A DNA stretch of 64,000 nt from an uncultured Verrucomicrobiae bacterium. GTDB taxonomy: Bacteria > Verrucomicrobiota > Verrucomicrobiia > Limisphaerales > UBA11358. Numbering within the stretch: position 1 is the first letter of the stretch; the number at the start of each line of letters is the position of its first letter. Shown here piece after piece: positions 5,082 through 58,655 of the stretch. The DNA lies in assembly GCA_963754775.1 (NCBI GenBank), contig CAVWHM010000045.1, forward strand, positions 134,494 through 198,493, given 5' to 3'. A program made the translations under genes and the position numbers. The notes below the pieces were generated by a model. The model searched no databases. It was given only the letters and a program-made list of their open reading frames with translations, and was not told the origin of the DNA.

Positions 5082-5254
5082 AAACCAACAGCAGCAGCCA
5101 AACGACGCGACTTAAGACTACGGGCTTTGGCCGTTGACTTGTTTGATTCATGCGGTGCAATTACCACAATTCAACTTCAGGGAACAAATTGAAAATTTTG
5201 ATGGAACATTGAAAAAGGAAATGGCTTCCCGTCCGTTTGCAAACACCGGCCAGA

Positions 5255-5313: not shown

Positions 5314-6198
5314 TCAAACTCCAATCAACGCCGCGCCGATGACCCCGGCGGAATCACCAAGCTGATGTTTGACGATGGGCGTTTCGAGGCAATCGCTGAA
5401 AACGTGCCGCGCGATTTCCGCGACGCCTTCCGTGTAGAGCGCATCGAAATTTGAGACGCCCCCGCCAAGCACGACCACGTCCGGGTCCAGCACGTCAATG
5501 AGATTGGCCAGCGAACGGCCAAAGTGGCGGAAGAAAATTTTCATGAACGCCACCGCCTTCGTATCGCCGGCCTGGTAATCCTTCACGATTTCCTTGAACG
5601 ACCGTTTCGCTCCGAACTGTTCGGCGTAGCGCGCCTCCAGTCCGCCGCCGCTGATGTACGTCTCCACGCAACCGCGCTGACCACAGTAGCACAACGGACC
5701 GTCCGGGGCGATGGACATGTGGCCCCATTCGCCGGCGATGGCCTGCGGGCCGGTGATGACCTCGCCTTGGTAAACAATTCCCCCGCCACAGCCCGTGCCC
5801 ATGATGACGCCAAAAACCAGTTTCTTTCCCCGGCCCGCGCCGTGCAGCGCCTCGGCCATGGCGAAACAATTCGCGTCGTTCTGGATTTCGATTTTTCGGC
5901 CGAGCATCCGTTCGAGGTCGGTTTTCAACGGCTGGCCGTTCATGCAGACGGTGTTGGAATTTTTCAGCAGGCCGGTGCGCGGCGAGATGGCTCCGGGCGT
6001 GCCGATGCCGAACGTGTGTGGTTGTGATTGAACATGTGCGGCCAGTTCGTCATACAGCCCTTTGAGGCGGCTCAGGATGTGGGCATAACCTTTTTCCTGC
6101 TGTGTCTCCACGCGCTTGCGGAAAAGTTCGCGGCCAGAGGCCTCGAGGACGATGCCTTCAATCTTCGTGCCGCCCAGGTCTATGCCCATGCGAAACAT
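5314..6198 (-). CDS. ROK-family sugar kinase (NagK/Mak-like)
   Basis: 294 aa. GIDLGGTKIEG ATP-binding N-terminus, NDANCFAMAEA, the zinc motif GHMSI...CYCGQRGCVETYISG, and the same overall layout as E. coli NagK. Confidence 0.85.
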   Translation of the reverse strand: MFRMGIDLGGTKIEGIVLEASGRELFRKRVETQQEKGYAHILSRLKGLYDELAAHVQSQPHTFGIGTPGAISPRTGLLKNSNTVCMNGQPLKTDLERMLGRKIEIQNDANCFAMAEALHGAGRGKKLVFGVIMGTGCGGGIVYQGEVITGPQAIAGEWGHMSIAPDGPLCYCGQRGCVETYISGGGLEARYAEQFGAKRSFKEIVKDYQAGDTKAVAFMKIFFRHFGRSLANLIDVLDPDVVVLGGGVSNFDALYTEGVAEIARHVFSDCLETPIVKHQLGDSAGVIGAALIGV

Positions 6199-10864: not shown

Positions 10865-11803
10865 TCAAACTTCCTTCAACGCGCGATTGATCCGTTCGAT
10901 GGCTTCGTCAATTTCCTGACGGCTTTTGAACCCGATGACCACGGCGTCAATCTCCCGGCAGGCCATGGCAAAGCGGATGGATTTCTCGCGGTCGGCCGGG
11001 TCGGTGAACGTGCCGTTGCCGCAGATTTTCATGCCAATCACGCCGCGGCCCTTCGCGTGCATCGTTTTGATTTCCTTCATCACCGGGGCGATTTCATGGC
11101 GGCGGCTGCCCCAGTAACCGCTGTCGCCATCGGTGTAAGCGCCCTGCGGATTCACGCGGACCAGGTGCACTTCGGTCCAATCCGAGGCGACGGCGGCGCG
11201 CAACGCGGGCAGGCTGTGGCAGGAAACGCCCTTGGCCCGGATCCATTTCCGTTCCCGGGCTTCGTTGAAACCGTCCATGACGCGTTTCCATTCGTCCGTC
11301 CACTGGCCGCGCGTCATGCAATGAATGAGCACGCTGTCAACGTAATCGGTGTTGAACGTTTTGCGGTGCTGGTCAATGACACCCAGCACGTTCTCCGGCT
11401 GGCCGTCCACCTTGGACTGGATGAAAAGTTTTTCCCGCGGCAATCCTTTGATGGCATCGGCAATCAAATCAAATGTCTGGTACGCCTGGGCGGTGTCAAT
11501 GTACGTGATGCCGCGGTCATAGGCGTAATGAATGAGGTTGACGAACTCGTCTTTGCCCCGCGCAGTTTGTATGTAGCCGTTGTCGCTGCCGGTGCCGAAC
11601 CCCAGCCGGCTCAGTTTGATGCCGGTCTTGCCCAGCGTCACTTGATCCGTAGCGGTGCGCACCGGAGCCGGGCTGCTCGCCGCGGATGATTCGGCCAGCG
11701 CCCACGGCGAGAGCAACGCCGTGCCGGCCAGCGCGGTGGAGGTTTGGATGAATTGACGGCGTGTCAGGCCGCGACCGTTTTGCGATGAGCTGATCTTGCG
11801 CAT
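10865..11803 (-). CDS. Aldo/keto reductase with twin-arginine (Tat) signal
   Basis: 312 aa. N-terminus RRQFIQTSTALAGTALLSPWALA. AKR-like core (GITYIDTAQAY...). Confidence 0.85.
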   Translation of the reverse strand: MRKISSSQNGRGLTRRQFIQTSTALAGTALLSPWALAESSAASSPAPVRTATDQVTLGKTGIKLSRLGFGTGSDNGYIQTARGKDEFVNLIHYAYDRGITYIDTAQAYQTFDLIADAIKGLPREKLFIQSKVDGQPENVLGVIDQHRKTFNTDYVDSVLIHCMTRGQWTDEWKRVMDGFNEARERKWIRAKGVSCHSLPALRAAVASDWTEVHLVRVNPQGAYTDGDSGYWGSRRHEIAPVMKEIKTMHAKGRGVIGMKICGNGTFTDPADREKSIRFAMACREIDAVVIGFKSRQEIDEAIERINRALKEV

Positions 11804-11919
11804 GGATTACAACTAACACGGGCGGAGGAAACTGCAACTGTGATTTGGTGCGCGCCGGCAAAAAGGCCGTGCCGGCAAAAAGGCAAACTTGTTCCTCTCC
11901 GTTATCAATGCGGGTCGGG

Positions 11920-11967
11920 CATCCTGCCTGACTCGATTGGTTGGACCTGTGCTGAAAGCCTGTCCTG
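11920..11967. repeat. REP-like CCTGCCTGACTC element (copy 3)
   Basis: catcctgcctgactcgattggttggacctgtgctgaaagcctgtcc, immediately downstream of ahcY. Confidence 0.5.
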
Positions 11968-11969
11968 AG

Positions 11970-13436
11970 CTAATACCGATAGTGCTCCGGCTTGTAGGGA
12001 CCGTCGATCGGCACGCCCAGGTAATCAGCTTGTTTCCTGGTGAGCTTCGTAAGTTTGACGCCGATTTTATCCAAGTGTAACCGGGCGACTTCTTCGTCCA
12101 GTTTCTTGGGCAAACGATAGACGCCCACCTTGTAGATGTCCTTGTTCTTCCACAAATCCAGTTGCGCGAGCACCTGGTTCGTGAATGAGTTCGACATGAC
12201 GAAGCTCGGATGGCCTTCGGCGCAGCCGAGGTTCACCAGCCGGCCTTCGGCGAGCAAATAAATGCTGCGACCGCCGGGCAGGTCGTAGCGGTCCACCTGC
12301 GGTTTGATATTCAGCTTGCTGACGCCCTTTGCGTTGTTCAGGCGGTCCACCTGGATTTCGTTGTCGAAGTGGCCGATGTTGCAAACGATGGCCTGATCCC
12401 TCATCTTGAGGATGTGCTCGAGCGTGATGACGTCGCAATTGCCGGTGGTGGTGACGTAGATGTCCGCTTCGCAGAGCGCGTCTTCGATGGCCGTCACCTT
12501 GAACCCTTCCATCGCGGCCTGCAACGCGTTGATGGGGTCTATTTCGGTGACGATGACGCGCGCGCCAAATCCGCGCAGCGAATGCGCGCAGCCCTTGCCG
12601 ACGTCGCCGTAGCCGCAAACGAGGGCGGTCTTGCCGGCAATCATCACGCCAAGCGCGCGCTTGAGGCCGTCCGCGAGTGATTCGCGGCAGCCGTAGAGAT
12701 TGTCGAACTTCGATTTGGTGACGGAGTCGTTGACGTTGATGGCCGGCACGAGCAGTTTTTTGGCCTCGAGCATCTGGTAGAGCCGATGCACGCCGGTCGT
12801 CGTTTCTTCGCTGACACCTTTCCAGTCTTTGACGGCCCGCGTGAACCAGCCGGGACGTTCCTTCGCGCACTTCTTCAAAAGATTTTTGACGACGGAAACT
12901 TCGTGGCTGTCACCGGGTGTGTTGACCCAATTGTCGCCCTGTTCCATTTCATAACCTTTGTGGAGGAGCAGTGTGGCGTCGCCACCGTCGTCCACGACCA
13001 GTTGCGGGCCCTGGTTGCCCGGATGCGTGAGCATGTCGAGCGTGAACTGCCAGTATTCCTCCAGCGATTCGCCCTTGAACGCGAACACCGGCACGCCGGT
13101 TTTCGCAATCGCAGCGGCGGCCTGGTCCTGCGTTGAAAAAATGTTGCAACTCGCCCAGCGCACGGACGCGCCGAGTTCGGCCAGCGTCTCGATGAGCACG
13201 GCGGTCTCGATGGTCATGTGCAACGAACCGGAAATGCGCACGCCCCGAAACGGCTTTTGCGGGCCGTATTTGGCGCGGATGGACATAAGCCCGGGCATTT
13301 CCTGCTCGGCCACGTCAATCTCGCGGCGGCCGAGGTCGGCGAGCGAAATGTCGCGGACGTAGTAATCGTGTTTCGCGCCGTTGCCATTGGCCCTGGCAAT
13401 TTTCGCGCGTGAAGGGGGAAGTTTGACTGCGGGCAT
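11970..13436 (-). CDS. ahcY: Adenosylhomocysteinase
   Basis: 488 aa. [23 protein letters not shown], the NAD-binding GYGDVGKG motif, and C-terminal [10 protein letters not shown]. Confidence 0.95.
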
Positions 13437-54434: not shown

Positions 54435-54689
54435 TCAAGGCCGCGTGATGTGAAGCGCCGCCTCGAAATCGCGGGAAAACTGTGAAATGGCGCCGGTAAT
54501 TTTGCGCGGCTGCTCGATCAGGGTGTTCCACATGTTCCCGGCGTTTTCCGGGCGGCGTTGAATCAACTCGACCGCCGCGGTCATCAGTGACAGGCCGTTG
54601 TTCACATCGTGGCGCAGGTCGGCGAGTTTTTGGTTCAACTCGTGTATCTGTTCGGCGCTCAAGGTGACGGGTTCATTCGGCAAAAGCAT
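54435..54689 (-). CDS. Small helical protein with a histidine-kinase H-box-like motif (tentative)
   Basis: 84 aa. LADLRHDVNNGLSLMTAAVELI resembles a HisKA/DHp H-box. No ATPase domain. Confidence 0.35.
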   Translation of the reverse strand: MLLPNEPVTLSAEQIHELNQKLADLRHDVNNGLSLMTAAVELIQRRPENAGNMWNTLIEQPRKITGAISQFSRDFEAALHITRP

Positions 54690-54741: not shown

Positions 54742-54774
54742 TGAATTGGAGCGAGCGAAGGGATTCGAACCCTC
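54742..54774. repeat. Direct repeat: 33-bp copy of the tRNA-Gly 3' end plus 5 nt (distal att-like site)
   Basis: tgaattggagcgagcgaagggattcgaaccctc is identical to 57963-57995. There is no tRNA continuation beyond it. Confidence 0.8.
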
Positions 54775-55054
54775 AGCACAAAATTCACAAAGCACGCAAA
54801 ATCAGGAACCTCCACAACCTGCTAAAGAGGGCTATACACAAATACGCGCACAAATTTTAGGCGAGCTTGGACCTGAACTGACGCATGTGGTCACTACCTG
54901 GTCGAAACTTTCTGCGCCACTCAAGGCAGCAATTCTCGCCATCGTCAATTCAACGGAGGATGAGCAATGACCACCGTTCTTCTGAAAGCTTCTCCTGAAG
55001 CATTACCGCTCAAATGTGGAGGCTTTGGGATATGGCCCCTAATTGCGGCAGTGC

Positions 55055-55074
55055 CCTGCGCCGTAAGGCGCAGG
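55055..55074. other. 8-bp stem / GTAA loop hairpin just upstream of the Rep gene (candidate origin or terminator)
   Basis: cctgcgcc-gtaa-ggcgcagg. Confidence 0.3.
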
Positions 55075-55130
55075 CGCACGCCGCATGGGTTTATTACTAA
55101 AGCAATATCTAGCACGTCAATTTTCACGGA

Positions 55131-55913
55131 ATGAATATATTAATTAAAGAATGTAGGGAAAATAGTGCTGATATTGATTTGGGGGTCAAAGCGAAATCAA
55201 AACTGCACTGGCTGACGCGGTGGCGTATCAGGGAGTCCGTCCGGTTTCTTTTGAAGCGCTACGGGCGGAATTGTACATGGGTCACGCTGGGGTTTGCGGA
55301 GAATTACACAGAATTAGAAAAACCGCAAAAATGTTTAAAGCTTCTACGGCAAAGGGTTTTGCGTTGGAAACCAGCGAGCCGAGCCGTTGGTGTTTGGCAA
55401 CGCCAAAAGCGGGGCGCATGGCACGTTCATCTCGTGTTATCGCATCGTGTGGCAAGGAAAGTTTTTGTGCCAATGGCTGAGGTCTGTGGATTTGGTCGTG
55501 CTGGTGTGGATTTTAAGGGGATAGACTTGCAATGTGGTGCGGACGGTGTGGCCTCATATATGACGCGATACCTTGGGCACAGTGACGGCGGAAAGTGGCC
55601 AGCCGAACCTGATAACAGGCTTGTGACAGGTTGGGGCGGCGGGATGGTGGCAAAGGGCCGTTTTGTGATTCTTGGTGGGTTGGCGGAAATTTATTGGCGG
55701 GGCCGGTTTCTGTTTGGCGGGCGGGACGAGTCTGGCATGAAGCAGCTTGATTGGATGTACCACGTACGGGCATGTCGTGACGAAATAATGCGAATGGGTT
55801 GGACGTGTTTAACCGCAGCGCAGGCAACCTCCCTTTTGAAAAGTCGGTCGGTGCGAAACTGGTTGAGTAAGTGGAAAATGCTCCGCCAATGTTCGGCAGT
55901 TGAAAGGGGGTGA
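55131..55913 (+). CDS. HUH-superfamily rolling-circle replication initiator-like protein (Rep)
   Basis: 260 aa. Motif I-like WVTLGF, HUH motif WHVHLVL, Tyr motif VASYMTRYLGH, in the canonical order. Confidence 0.55.
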   Translation: MNILIKECRENSADIDLGVKAKSKLHWLTRWRIRESVRFLLKRYGRNCTWVTLGFAENYTELEKPQKCLKLLRQRVLRWKPASRAVGVWQRQKRGAWHVHLVLSHRVARKVFVPMAEVCGFGRAGVDFKGIDLQCGADGVASYMTRYLGHSDGGKWPAEPDNRLVTGWGGGMVAKGRFVILGGLAEIYWRGRFLFGGRDESGMKQLDWMYHVRACRDEIMRMGWTCLTAAQATSLLKSRSVRNWLSKWKMLRQCSAVERG

Positions 55914-56137
55914 TCAAGATGCCTGAGTTAAAAACGACTGATAGCGACTGTTTGGTTTGGGAGAACGGTCTTTGCTGGCTTGCTACTGTGGTTGACGGTC
56001 GGGAGCAGTGCAATTATTTGGGTGAGATTGGTGCGGTGGACGAGGTGCGAGCCTTTTGTGAGTCTCATGGAATACGGTTGTTGGTAATGCGAAAGGACCG
56101 GGCTGCGTTCCGGCCCCCGCTTCCAATCAGACCGTAG
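55910..56137 (+). CDS. Hypothetical small protein (element-borne)
   Basis: 75-aa ORF. GTG 55910 overlaps the Rep stop; an ATG lies at 55919. No recognisable motif. Confidence 0.35.
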   Translation: MIKMPELKTTDSDCLVWENGLCWLATVVDGREQCNYLGEIGAVDEVRAFCESHGIRLLVMRKDRAAFRPPLPIRP

Positions 56138-56225
56138 TTTTGAGCGAAGTGAATCCAATAACACACTTTTAACGACTGACACGGTTTGTAATTTTGTTTC
56201 ATAGCGTCTTGGTTTGTGAATTCCG

Positions 56226-56822
56226 TTATTTCTCCAATTCATTCAAAGCCGCTTCAAGATTAGTCTGTGTGTCAGCAAGTTTTTGTTTAATTTGGACCTG
56301 CGCCGCCTGTTCGCCTTCAGCATGGCGCAATACTTCGCACATGAGATGTCGGCGAAGTCCATTAGTCTCACGTACCAAATGATTCAATATAGGATTAACA
56401 GTAGGCTTGCCTATTTTTGTCAGTGCTTCTTCGGCTGGATATAATCCCCAGCGCTGAATGTCGGTCTTTGGATCGAACCGGGTTGCCATTAAATCAATAT
56501 ATTCTAATAAGGCTTCCACAGAATTCGTGTCACTCGGACGCAATTCACCAAGAAAATAAATGACCAGTACCTTTTTGTCGTCAGTAAGATTGCCCTGCCG
56601 TAATTGGTAAACTAAATTAGTGACATATTCAGCGTCTATTTTCTTCGCCTTTCTTGCGACGATTAAATTACATTCAGAATTAACGGCGTCGTTTGCCTCG
56701 TCGTATGACATTTTATTGAAGTCGGGAGGTAAAACAGCATGGGATGGGTTTGTTATTTGATTTTGTGAGTTGACACTACACGCAATAAGGAAGATCGTGG
56801 CAATAATTGCTTTTAGTTTCAT
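56226..56822 (-). CDS. Hypothetical lipoprotein/secreted helical protein (element-borne)
   Basis: Trimmed to the ATG at 56822. Signal MKLKAIIATIFLIACS. AT-rich codon usage. Confidence 0.5.
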   Translation of the reverse strand: MKLKAIIATIFLIACSVNSQNQITNPSHAVLPPDFNKMSYDEANDAVNSECNLIVARKAKKIDAEYVTNLVYQLRQGNLTDDKKVLVIYFLGELRPSDTNSVEALLEYIDLMATRFDPKTDIQRWGLYPAEEALTKIGKPTVNPILNHLVRETNGLRRHLMCEVLRHAEGEQAAQVQIKQKLADTQTNLEAALNELEK

Positions 56823-56833
56823 AATATACTTGT

Positions 56834-57946
56834 TTATCTGTGTGTATAATTTGGGCTGGTAGGCAAAGTAATAAGCGACGTGCTTAACGCGTTCAACTGA
56901 ACCTTGTTGGTAGCATCCACATCTACCTGCGCTGTATAACTCCAAGTATTCGTGTCAGAGCAGGTTTGATCTCCATTCCCCAAATTCACTGTCACATATT
57001 GATAAAAGTCATCATAGCATTCGGAAGTATGAATAATAAATGTGCCAGAGAAATGCTCTGAACATCCCGGAGCGTCTAAACCAAATATATCTCCATTTGC
57101 TGGATTTAAATATTTATCATCAGCATTGTTGGCATCATCTACCCCCGGTAGGGGATTTGAAATCGTTGGCCCCGATTCCCAGACGCCGGAATTGTAATTT
57201 CCGCCGTTGTCCCATGCTATTACTACCCTAGTTCTTTTCATGTCCCAATTAGTAGTTAAGAGATTTCCAATCCCTATTGGCTGAAGAACTGCCTTAGCTT
57301 CCATTTTCCCAATCGTATAAGAATATGTAAGACTTGGATTGCTTAAGCAATCGAGCGTTCCGAGGTTGTTTCCACCGCCAAGTATTGCTGGCCAATTATT
57401 ATCCAAGCTATTTAAAACCGCTGCTTTATCATCTGGGTCGAGCGTGCCATTGACTTTGATAGTAAGATTCGCCCAGATTACCCAGACATTGATGCTGACG
57501 CTTGACGAACCGAGCGAAGCCGTCACCGCCGTCTCGGCAGGAGTCGCTTTGGACACCCGCCGTTGCAGCGGATTGCCCGACACCGCTTCTCCACCGCTCC
57601 ATTGAATATTTGCCGCCACATTGGTCAGGATATAGTCATTCGTCATGCTCAACATAGCCTGCACAATTACATAATCGTTGGTCGCTTCCACCGCTGCCCA
57701 GTTTGTCGTCCCATTAATCTGCACTGCACTATTTGACACCACCGTCAACAGAAAATTCATAGCCTGAGGATTAAAACTATAATCACTATATTGATAACCC
57801 GGCGCTGTTGCCAGCTTCAACGGCACAGTTACGCGCACAGATTTTAGTCCAAGAGGGTCAAAACGTGGCGCAACCTGTCGCAAAGAGCGAAGGGCAGAAA
57901 AGCGATAACGGGCCTGTAAATGACGGGGTTTGTCTCGGTGTGGCAT
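56834..57946 (-). CDS. Hypothetical beta-rich protein (element-borne)
   Basis: The listed ORF begins inside the tRNA, so it was trimmed to the ATG at 57946; another candidate start is MNFLL further downstream. Asn/Ser/Thr/Gly-rich with several Cys. No recognisable motif. Confidence 0.4.
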   Translation of the reverse strand: MPHRDKPRHLQARYRFSALRSLRQVAPRFDPLGLKSVRVTVPLKLATAPGYQYSDYSFNPQAMNFLLTVVSNSAVQINGTTNWAAVEATNDYVIVQAMLSMTNDYILTNVAANIQWSGGEAVSGNPLQRRVSKATPAETAVTASLGSSSVSINVWVIWANLTIKVNGTLDPDDKAAVLNSLDNNWPAILGGGNNLGTLDCLSNPSLTYSYTIGKMEAKAVLQPIGIGNLLTTNWDMKRTRVVIAWDNGGNYNSGVWESGPTISNPLPGVDDANNADDKYLNPANGDIFGLDAPGCSEHFSGTFIIHTSECYDDFYQYVTVNLGNGDQTCSDTNTWSYTAQVDVDATNKVQLNALSTSLITLPTSPNYTHR

Positions 57947-57967
57947 CGCTGGTCGCAGATGATGAAT

Positions 57968-58044
57968 TGGAGCGAGCGAAGGGATTCGAACCCTCGACAC
58001 TCACGTTGGCAACGTGATGCTCTACCAGGCTGAGCTACGCTCGC
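57968..58044 (-). tRNA. tRNA-Gly (anticodon GCC)
   Basis: Manual cloverleaf on the minus strand: acceptor GCGAGCG/CGCTCGC, D arm GCTC-AGCCTGGTA-GAGC, anticodon stem TCACG/CGTGA with loop TTGCCAA, T arm GAGGG-TTCGAAT-CCCTT, discriminator T, encoded CCA. Confidence 0.9.
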
Positions 58045-58096: not shown

Positions 58097-58522
58097 TCAG
58101 CCTGACTTCGCCGGTTTGCCCAGCACCGAACGGATCACCTTGAGCAAATCGTCGTGGTCAATCGGCTTGTGGAAAAACGCGGCGGCGCCGCTGCTCGCGG
58201 CCCGTTCCTTGTATTTGGGGTCTTCGCTGCCAGTGATGATGATGATGGGAATTTTTCTCGCTGTGTCCAGCCGTTGGAACCATTCCATGACGCGAAAGCC
58301 GTCCCACGGCACACCGTCCACGGCGGGCGGAAAACCGATGTCCAGCAAAATCAAATCGGGATTTTCCTTGCGTGCGGCGGCAACGGCTTCAGCCCCGTCC
58401 AGGGCCGTGAAGACCCGATAACCAGCTCCCTGCAGTTTCAGAGAAACTGTCTTCAGGATGATCTCGTTATCATCCACCACCAAAATTTTTTTTACAGGCC
58501 CGGATGCGGATTCAGCACTCAT
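58097..58522 (-). CDS. Single-domain response regulator (CheY-like receiver)
   Basis: KILVVDDNEIIL...DLILLDIGFPP...IPIIIITG. ATG at 58522 (GTG at 58534 is possible). Confidence 0.85.
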   Translation of the reverse strand: MSAESASGPVKKILVVDDNEIILKTVSLKLQGAGYRVFTALDGAEAVAAARKENPDLILLDIGFPPAVDGVPWDGFRVMEWFQRLDTARKIPIIIITGSEDPKYKERAASSGAAAFFHKPIDHDDLLKVIRSVLGKPAKSG

Positions 58523-58655
58523 AATCGTCAACACCGAAACTCGGTTCGCTTTTCCCCAACAGCGATGTCAGCAAAAATAACGAACCGGCCATGCTAAACA
58601 AAGCACATTTTATGCCCTTTGACTTCCAGCCCATCCGCCATGCTAAACTGGGCCT

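Follow-up and report, generated by a model that had tools for sequence, protein, structure and literature searches.

A recombinase-less insertion at a tRNA-Gly gene of an uncultured Verrucomicrobiae bacterium: probably a deletion derivative of a small integrative rolling-circle element

The insertion at tRNA-Gly

In a stretch of 64,000 nucleotides from an uncultured Verrucomicrobiae bacterium (GenBank assembly GCA_963754775.1, contig CAVWHM010000045.1, positions 134,494 to 198,493; hereafter the window, to which all unprefixed positions refer) an insert of 3,221 bp adjoins the gene for tRNA-Gly(GCC) (57968–58044, minus strand; found by ARAGORN, Rfam tRNA 67.7 bits). The insert encodes a rolling-circle replication initiator (Rep) of the HUH type, a few small open reading frames (ORFs), a lipoprotein and a beta-rich protein, all of which had been noticed in an earlier reading of the letters of the window alone (the original prediction) and all of which are present. 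That reading left three options: a decayed island, a satellite mobilized in trans, or a small replicon or virus-like element that integrates by another route. Here we describe the element and its relatives, which mostly come from metagenomes (contigs L001 and following), and weigh these options.

The insert lies between two copies of a perfect 33-bp direct repeat (54742–54774 and 57963–57995; 38 nt if two mismatches are allowed) made up of the last 28 nt of tRNA-Gly and 5 nt downstream of it, and the full tRNA continues from the right copy only. On these points repeat search, ARAGORN and Rfam agree with the original prediction; in the sequence scanned with Rfam the tRNA was the sole family matched. 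The left repeat (54742–54774) is the displaced copy of the core of the attachment site and is referred to as attL, the right one (57963–57995), which is the functional 3' end of the tRNA, as attR; no strand is assigned to either. The G+C content is indeed lower inside the element (0.39–0.55 over 400 nt, with the minimum at 56400–57400) than in the flanks (0.56–0.61), although the 33–37% originally counted in single lines is never reached over 400 nt.

Empty sites are found in related genomes. Via proteins in the same 90% cluster as the neighbouring extracytoplasmic function (ECF) sigma factor, contigs were obtained from other metagenomes and metagenome-assembled genomes (MAGs) of Verrucomicrobiia/Limisphaerales, six of which (L102, L103, L104, L105, L106 and L108) carry one 33-bp copy and no insert. 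Their gene order is response regulator, tRNA-Gly(GCC), 84-aa gene and sigma factor, with nothing in between. When the flanks of the element are aligned with these contigs, the left alignment stops at 54774 and the right one starts at 57963, both on the single 33-nt copy of the relatives (identities left/right: 92/88% for L102–L104 and 84/80% for L106). With a tRNA end repeated at both borders, a restored tRNA and a single core at the empty site, the 3.2-kb segment is shown by sequence comparison to be a site-specific insertion at the 3' end of tRNA-Gly, which is how it had been read originally. The 84-aa gene and the CheY-like receiver gene (54435–54689 and 58097–58534 in the window) are adjacent, with tRNA-Gly between them and about 190 bp apart, in the empty-site relatives, so that in the window the element separates former neighbours.

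Besides the window, the site is occupied in L007, which contains the same element (flank 99.5% identical), and in the lineage of L001 and L099 (90%). In a tree of 940 bp of flanking sequence the three ingroup lineages are unresolved, and one or two events of gain or loss are therefore both possible. The near-identical copy in L007 (L007:2219–3924) has frameshifts in rep, in the ORF next to attL and in the lipoprotein gene; they are probably sequencing indels and not decay, since the name of the contig suggests a long-read assembly. In the L001 lineage an extra segment of 1.85 kb with a tetratricopeptide repeat (TPR)-sulfotransferase gene and a 93-aa ORF (L001:943–2786, L099:2026–3585) lies between the 84-aa gene and attL; it is missing in the window and in the empty-site genomes, and a second att copy, which was looked for beside it, does not mark its border. 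A few kb from the tRNA-Gly site of L103 there is a block of HTH_17, D5_N-DUF5906 primase and rve genes (L103:407–6262) that looks like another mobile element; L102 has tRNA-Lys there (L102:5291–6396).

Integrase remnants on both sides of the core

That the insert encodes no recombinase is true only if an intact gene is meant. The element still contains two pieces of an integrase gene (int), and no others. The first, at 54775–54970 (plus strand), is an orphan 3' tail of int, contained in a 74-aa ORF (54746–54970) that begins within attL. This ORF matches the corresponding tail ORF of L098, a relative described below (tblastn, E 9.6e-10), and the tail that closes the unsplit integrase P0231 of L109 (BLASTP, E 1e-5), and the assignment is further supported by read-through of the frame. 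The tail has a conserved C-terminal motif, ELxxVVxxWxKLxxPLKAAILAIV, which also occurs between a partial tRNA and the Rep gene in L019, L021–L023 and L031, whose Reps are only 30–35% identical to that of the window. Orphan ORFs of this type beside partial tRNAs can be annotated as displaced integrase tails rather than as genes to which no function is assigned.

The second fragment (57808–57962, plus strand) ends directly before the core in attR. It encodes ...ILVQEGQNVAQPVAKSEGQKSDNGPVNDGVCLGVASLV... and matches residues 380–417 of the integrase P0211, which are the stretch from the catalytic tyrosine to the core, with 47% identity (BLASTP, E 5e-8). If the ends of the element are joined, the pre-core stretch and the tail are in frame through the core. 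The fragment also includes a P-arm-like repeat (57824–57847), of which a P'-arm-like counterpart, CACAAATACGCGCACAAATTTTAG, is located at 54837–54860 (plus strand; 21 of 24 positions match). The counterpart contains the heptamer CACARAT, recurring at a period of 12 nt. The two repeats are positioned like the duplicated arm sequences of L020, L016, L098 and L109, in the first two of which a repeat pair likewise flanks the core, the duplication being visible as duplicated peptides in the last two.

A search of the 64-kb window with the proteins of L020, L016 and L098 revealed neither an integrase body nor an excisionase (Xis), and a scan of IMG/VR with the joined integrase remnant gave no match. 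Since fragments of int are found on both sides of the core and the body of int and Xis are not found in the window, the element must once have had int and xis and lost them. An integrase pseudogene, which according to the original prediction would make the insert an ordinary decayed island, is therefore what the 74-aa ORF and the pre-core stretch together represent.

Intact relatives and an integrase gene that spans the attachment site

What the complete element may have looked like can be seen from relatives at other tRNA genes. The key one is L098 (type B), whose Rep is 91% identical to that of the window and whose DNA is 87% identical between the end of the tail ORF and an origin-like site. 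The element in L098 is 4.3 kb long and bounded by a 27-bp repeat of the 3' end of tRNA-Ser(GCT) (L098:939–965 and 5202–5228). Its order is attL, an 81-aa "tail" ORF, a hairpin, Rep, a small ORF, ORFs of 145 and 170 aa, an excisionase-like HTH_17 gene (Xis), integrase and attR. The integrase is a tyrosine integrase of 443 aa (PF00589), and the 3' end of its gene runs into the tRNA. When the ends of L098 are joined through one core, a single frame of 491 aa results that comprises the integrase, the core peptide GGERGIRTP and the tail and ends at the stop codon of the tail ORF. A search with this joined sequence revealed many integrated forms of about 443 aa and one unsplit form, P0231 on L109, in which the catalytic domain and the core peptide form one uninterrupted sequence with the second arm peptide and the tail (SEIRSAWPHLADPLRAAILGIVGS). 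In L098 the int frame thus continues across the att core and on into the tail ORF, which means that integration splits off the 3' end of int.

A second type (type A) is represented by L020, with a Rep 47% identical to that of the window. It is 6.6 kb long, is bounded by 41 bp of the 5' half of tRNA-Leu(CAA) repeated without mismatch, and encodes a tyrosine integrase (403 aa, PF00589), two helix-turn-helix (HTH) proteins, Rep and cargo, in this order; a further pair of direct repeats is placed around the core as arm sites are. The same arrangement is found at tRNA-Leu(CAG) in L016, which stems from a Verrucomicrobiae MAG. The direct repeats of L020 and L016 are 41–42 bp long, to which the arm repeats are to be added.

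It should be mentioned that L098 (L098:1–1300 and 5346–5999) and L019 have two Rep modules arranged head to head, each with a tail-like ORF. The second Rep of L098 (69–848, minus strand) passes the PF23343 threshold and shows a weak, sub-threshold match to RepSA, and a second integrase gene begins just past the tRNA-Ser of L098. Possibly several elements are arranged here in tandem, or nested in one another, at a single tRNA.

The Rep protein and its putative origin

Rep (55131–55913, plus strand) has the three motifs of HUH rolling-circle initiators in the right order, as originally noticed: WVTLGF, HVHLVL and YMTRYLGH coincide with conserved columns of an alignment of 22 family members, which are motif 1 (xTLTF-like), motif 2 (HUH) and motif 3 (YxxxY). 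His98 and His100 of the HUH motif and Tyr143 and Tyr147 of the YxxxY motif are invariant, Thr52, Phe55 and Asn58 near-invariant. The protein also passed the profile searches, scoring 32.2 bits against PF23343 (REP_ORF2-G2P), for which the curated cut-off (gathering score) is 27.8 bits, and E 1.2e-11 against PHROG 3419 (rolling circle DNA replication initiation).

In an exhaustive search with HMMER, 116 relatives of Rep were obtained. The nearest annotated ones are Reps of small non-mobilizable plasmids of Firmicutes that use rolling-circle replication (RCR); these matches are weak (27–32% identity over the N-terminal catalytic half only, E down to 4e-7). The plasmids, for example the 1.5-kb NC_022994 of Geobacillus ("Rep5") and the 2.1-kb NZ_MH090918 of S. 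epidermidis, resemble the element in carrying little beyond rep, but they are free replicons without integrase or att sites. No match to Rep was found in 50,697 phage genomes, nor with the single protein in genome contigs and viral contigs; its profile had no match in PDB, NCBIfam gave no hit, and for the close family there was no match in IMG/VR. A search with a reduced alignment found one Verrucomicrobiae MAG.

Compared with the L001 lineage the ratio of nonsynonymous to synonymous substitution rates (dN/dS) of rep is 0.21 (dS 0.31) and compared with L098 it is 0.09 (dS 0.44). For the flanking genes of the host it is 0.16–0.17 at dS values of 0.26–0.40, which are similar to those of rep. Rep, which is intact, is judged from these ratios to be under purifying selection.

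Downstream of rep there is a small conserved ORF (55910–56137, plus strand), which is kept in L001–L007, L018 and L098 (57–87 aa in relatives, dN/dS 0.28–0.55) and of which distant copies exist in L026 and L027. It is followed and partly overlapped by a near-invariant DNA element of about 50 nt, CTGCGTTCCGGCCCCCGCTTCCAATCAGACCGTAGTTTTGAGCGAAGTGAA (56103–56153, plus strand). This element is conserved whatever the reading frame, also downstream of Reps that are only 30–47% identical (L016, L020, L021, L022, L028 and the L001 group), and it does not differ between elements integrated at different tRNAs. It occurs once in the window, and none of 100 shuffled sequences gave a match. Rfam gave no match to it, RNAalifold no convincing structure, and a scan of IMG/VR for the motif no match. 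From its conservation across the family it is likely to be the Rep nick site or double-strand origin.

A further candidate cis element is a GC-rich hairpin between the int tail and rep (55044–55085, plus strand), which is found at the same position in the window, L001, L098, L021 and L016. Its outer stem is conserved, and its inner stem varies among the four relatives by compensating changes. It may be a terminator of int or an element of a single-strand or double-strand origin. A 55-aa ORF that overlaps this hairpin (54967–55134) is probably not a gene, being only 66% conserved with a dN/dS of 0.48.

The lipoprotein and the beta-rich protein

Past position 56163 the window shows no further resemblance to L001 or L098, and two genes on the minus strand follow that are regarded as cargo. 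The first (56226–56825) encodes a lipoprotein of 199 aa with a signal peptide and a lipobox LIAC (MKLKAIIATIFLIAC); it has no family match in scans with Pfam and NCBIfam profiles and is paired with a gene for a beta-rich protein, which in the window has 334 aa (56834–57838, or to 57949). The two recur, always as a pair, with 49–61% identity in loci without Rep and tRNA (L008–L014), for example beside Wzy_C and GH16 genes and beside a Cas12-like CRISPR locus. In the latter case (L008/L009:467–8861) the homologue of the pair is located just downstream of genes for a Cas12-like protein (941 aa), Cas4, Cas1 and Cas2; the approximately 2.5 kb of uncalled sequence between the pair and the cas genes may contain a CRISPR array.

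The original prediction suggested comparing the beta-rich ORF with capsid and structural proteins. An AlphaFold2 model made from an alignment of 30 homologues (pLDDT 87, pTM 0.81) predicts tandem immunoglobulin (Ig)-like beta-sandwiches. Its top match in PDB is the phage protein Hoc (E 8e-5, TM 0.29); adhesins, pilins and S-layer proteins rank next. Neither PDB nor BFVD yielded a match to a capsid, which is why the protein was rejected as a capsid protein.

The homology of the 334-aa protein to its family begins only at about residue 19. P0008, one of the homologues, is longer by about 110–126 N-terminal residues and has a signal peptide, which is missing in the window protein. On this comparison the beta-rich gene is probably without its original 5' end. 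The truncated 5' end of the cargo gene (minus strand) and the truncated 5' end of the int remnant (plus strand) meet within about 40 bp (57784–57824), between which positions the junction of a deletion is located.

Origin of the insert

The insert is very probably the product of an internal deletion in a small integrative element of Verrucomicrobiota with rolling-circle replication. It is comparable to the cis-mobilizable elements (CIMEs) discussed below, and the family to which it belongs seems not to have been described so far. The intact form, as seen in L098, consists of attL, int tail, GC-rich hairpin, rep, small ORF, origin-like site, two to three small genes, Xis, integrase and attR/tRNA, and the core of its attP is located within the 3' coding part of int. 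When such an element integrates into the 3' end of a tRNA gene, it restores the tRNA, duplicates the core and leaves the last 60–75 codons or so of int orphaned at the far end, an outcome that the integrated copies show. In the cycle that we infer, Int and Xis would excise a circle, the HUH Rep would nick the origin so that the circle is copied by rolling-circle replication, and Int would reintegrate the circle.

In the copy of the window a deletion would have extended from the 5' part of the divergent beta-rich gene to about codon 375 of int, removing Xis and the catalytic part of the integrase. The fragments of int are there to be seen; a single deletion event across the divergent gene pair would be the simplest history that explains them. 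Left over are perfect attL and attR sites with the two arm-like repeats, a complete Rep, the origin-like site and a cassette of two genes for surface proteins. Such a copy would be unable to excise alone and would depend for any movement on a cognate integrase provided in trans. Mobilization of this kind is conceivable, since neither attL and attR nor the two arm-like repeats are damaged. If the insert is indeed such an ordinary deletion derivative, the paradox of an insertion that duplicates a tRNA end and encodes no recombinase is settled. Of the options in the original prediction it is thus the decayed island that is supported, with the refinement that the parent was a small integrative rolling-circle replicon.

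It should be noted, however, that several points weigh against this interpretation. The match of the pre-core stretch to an integrase spans only 38 residues, and the truncation of the beta-rich gene rests on longer homologues, some of which are possibly mis-called. An intact sibling at tRNA-Gly, the integrase of which should have the core peptide ERAKGFEPS, was not found, and the parent form at this site is therefore deduced from the sister at tRNA-Ser. The purifying selection on Rep was measured against lineages that are possibly still intact and is no proof of selection after the deletion. Finally, neither an excised circle nor an empty-site or attB joint was seen in four metagenome runs, for which low-depth Logan contigs were used. 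One odd joint, from 54863 to 57859, in run X3 is most simply explained as the right arm of a relative that was aligned to the paralogous arm repeat.

Alternatively, the integrase-less form could have been selected as an active satellite that excises with Int and Xis of an intact sibling, or of another element at tRNA-Gly, in the same population and replicates with its own Rep. The perfect identity of attL and attR over 33 bp, the retention of both arm-like repeats, the intact Rep with its low dN/dS and the occurrence of the same deleted form in a second sample (L007) speak for such a satellite. No helper was found within the 64-kb window, however, and the circle or empty-site joint that it should give rise to is missing from the low-depth metagenome contigs mentioned above; the int fragments and the 5'-truncated cargo gene look accidental rather than designed, and L007 is so close to the window, almost a clone of it, that it does not testify independently to spread. 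We therefore consider an active satellite unlikely.

A much less probable alternative is that no recombinase was ever needed, the HUH Rep itself cutting and joining at the tRNA gene. HUH enzymes such as transposases and relaxases can catalyse site-specific strand transfer, and a string of 8 nt, GAGCGAAG, is common to the origin-like element and the tRNA core. Yet Reps that are 87–91% identical are found at different tRNAs (tRNA-Gly in the window and L001, tRNA-Ser in L098), each site has its own core and arm repeats, L098 has its own integrase, integrases are likewise encoded by the relatives at tRNA-Leu, the core in the window has remnants of an integrase gene on both sides, and the origin-like element is unchanged across elements that use different tRNAs. 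Rep as the integrase was rejected on the first of these grounds, near-identical Reps being combined with different att/integrase modules.

Least of all is the insert to be regarded as a tiny prophage, or its remnant, of an inovirus- or microvirus-like single-stranded DNA virus with the beta-rich protein as capsid or coat, for, although Rep belongs to a Pfam family named for inovirus G2P and ORF2 and matches a rolling-circle family of PHROG, there is no match in the 50,697 phage genomes and none in IMG/VR for the close family, Pfam and PHROG detect no morphogenesis ATPase, no coat or capsid protein and no other phage structural family, the beta-rich protein is predicted to be Ig-like and is also encoded, next to its lipoprotein partner, at chromosomal loci that lack Rep, and the nearest annotated Reps are from small non-mobilizable RCR plasmids.

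Comparison with known elements

Three systems described in the literature share part of these features with the element, which in its preferred interpretation as a deletion derivative comes closest to a CIME. CIMEs are defined as elements flanked by att sites that have lost their recombination genes by decay and can be moved only with a related integrase (2017, PMC5704250). The insert agrees with this definition in having intact att sites at the 3' end of a tRNA gene, decayed integration genes and the potential to move with a supplied integrase. It differs in that the parent of a CIME is an integrative and conjugative element (ICE) or an integrative and mobilizable element (IME), whereas the parent of the insert was neither conjugative nor mobilizable: the element in the window, L098 and L020 have no relaxase, oriT or transfer genes. 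Unlike a CIME, the insert also keeps a replication initiator of its own, and its host belongs to the Verrucomicrobiota.

The AICEs (integrative and conjugative elements of actinomycetes) of the pSAM2 type have int, xis and repSA, integrate into tRNA genes and replicate by the rolling-circle mechanism after excision (te Poele et al. 2008, PMC2440964). The intact relatives described here likewise encode a tyrosine integrase together with an excisionase and an HUH Rep, and they too insert into a tRNA gene that is restored. They are, however, much smaller (4.3–7.7 kb) and lack FtsK-like Tra, spread and kor genes; their Rep is of the PF23343 and not of the RepSA family, to which only the second Rep of L098 shows its sub-threshold match; and they are from a different phylum. 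With neither a RepSA-family Rep nor an FtsK-like Tra they are not AICEs.

In archaea, integrases of the SSV type (also called suicidal) have attP inside the int ORF, and integration splits the gene (Badel et al. 2020, PMC7253208). Here, too, attP is within the int frame and the pieces of the gene are at opposite ends of the element, as is evident from the read-through in L098 and the contiguous gene in L109. In contrast to the archaeal case, the core is near the 3' end of int, so that the integrated gene loses only a tail of about 60–75 residues, and the hosts are bacteria. Integration does not inactivate int in the SSV manner, as the integrated Int of L098 (443 aa) keeps the full PF00589 domain. 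The likeness noted here is one of gene architecture.

The split gene nevertheless invites a proposal, which is tentative and which we would not yet put at even chances. In the verrucomicrobial replicons of 4–8 kb from soil and peat, in which int spans attP, the tail ELxxVVxxWxxLPxPLKAAILAIV would be part of Int only in the circle, and its presence or absence could serve as a switch between integration and excision. The proposal applies to the type represented by L098, which integrates into the 3' end of a tRNA gene and loses the tail on integration. If the proposal is true, these elements would correspond, in bacteria, to the split integrases of the SSV type in archaea and also to the integration-dependent immunity of mycobacteriophages, and the window's copy would be a natural substrate with "tail plus att only".

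The comparison reveals a family of minimal integrase-Xis-Rep elements in peat and soil Verrucomicrobiota with a conserved origin-like sequence, some of which have an int that is remodelled by integration and some of which have integron-like cassette arrays. The elements are potential small integrative or replicative vectors for a phylum for which there are few genetic tools.

Cargo regions of the relatives

In L001–L005, L017, L018, L021–L023 and L099–L101 the contigs of many independent metagenomes end 0.2–1 kb past the Rep module, which suggests strain-level variation or repeats in the cargo region. Where this region is contained in the contig, as in L020 (L020:10900–14020) and L016 (L016:11450–14300), the cargo ORFs are spaced by repeats of about 100 nt. 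L016 in addition has a gene for an integron-integrase-like tyrosine recombinase (11452–12582, minus strand) and a duplicated 80-aa cassette. The cargo regions of L020 and L016 look like integron-type cassette arrays on small integrative elements.

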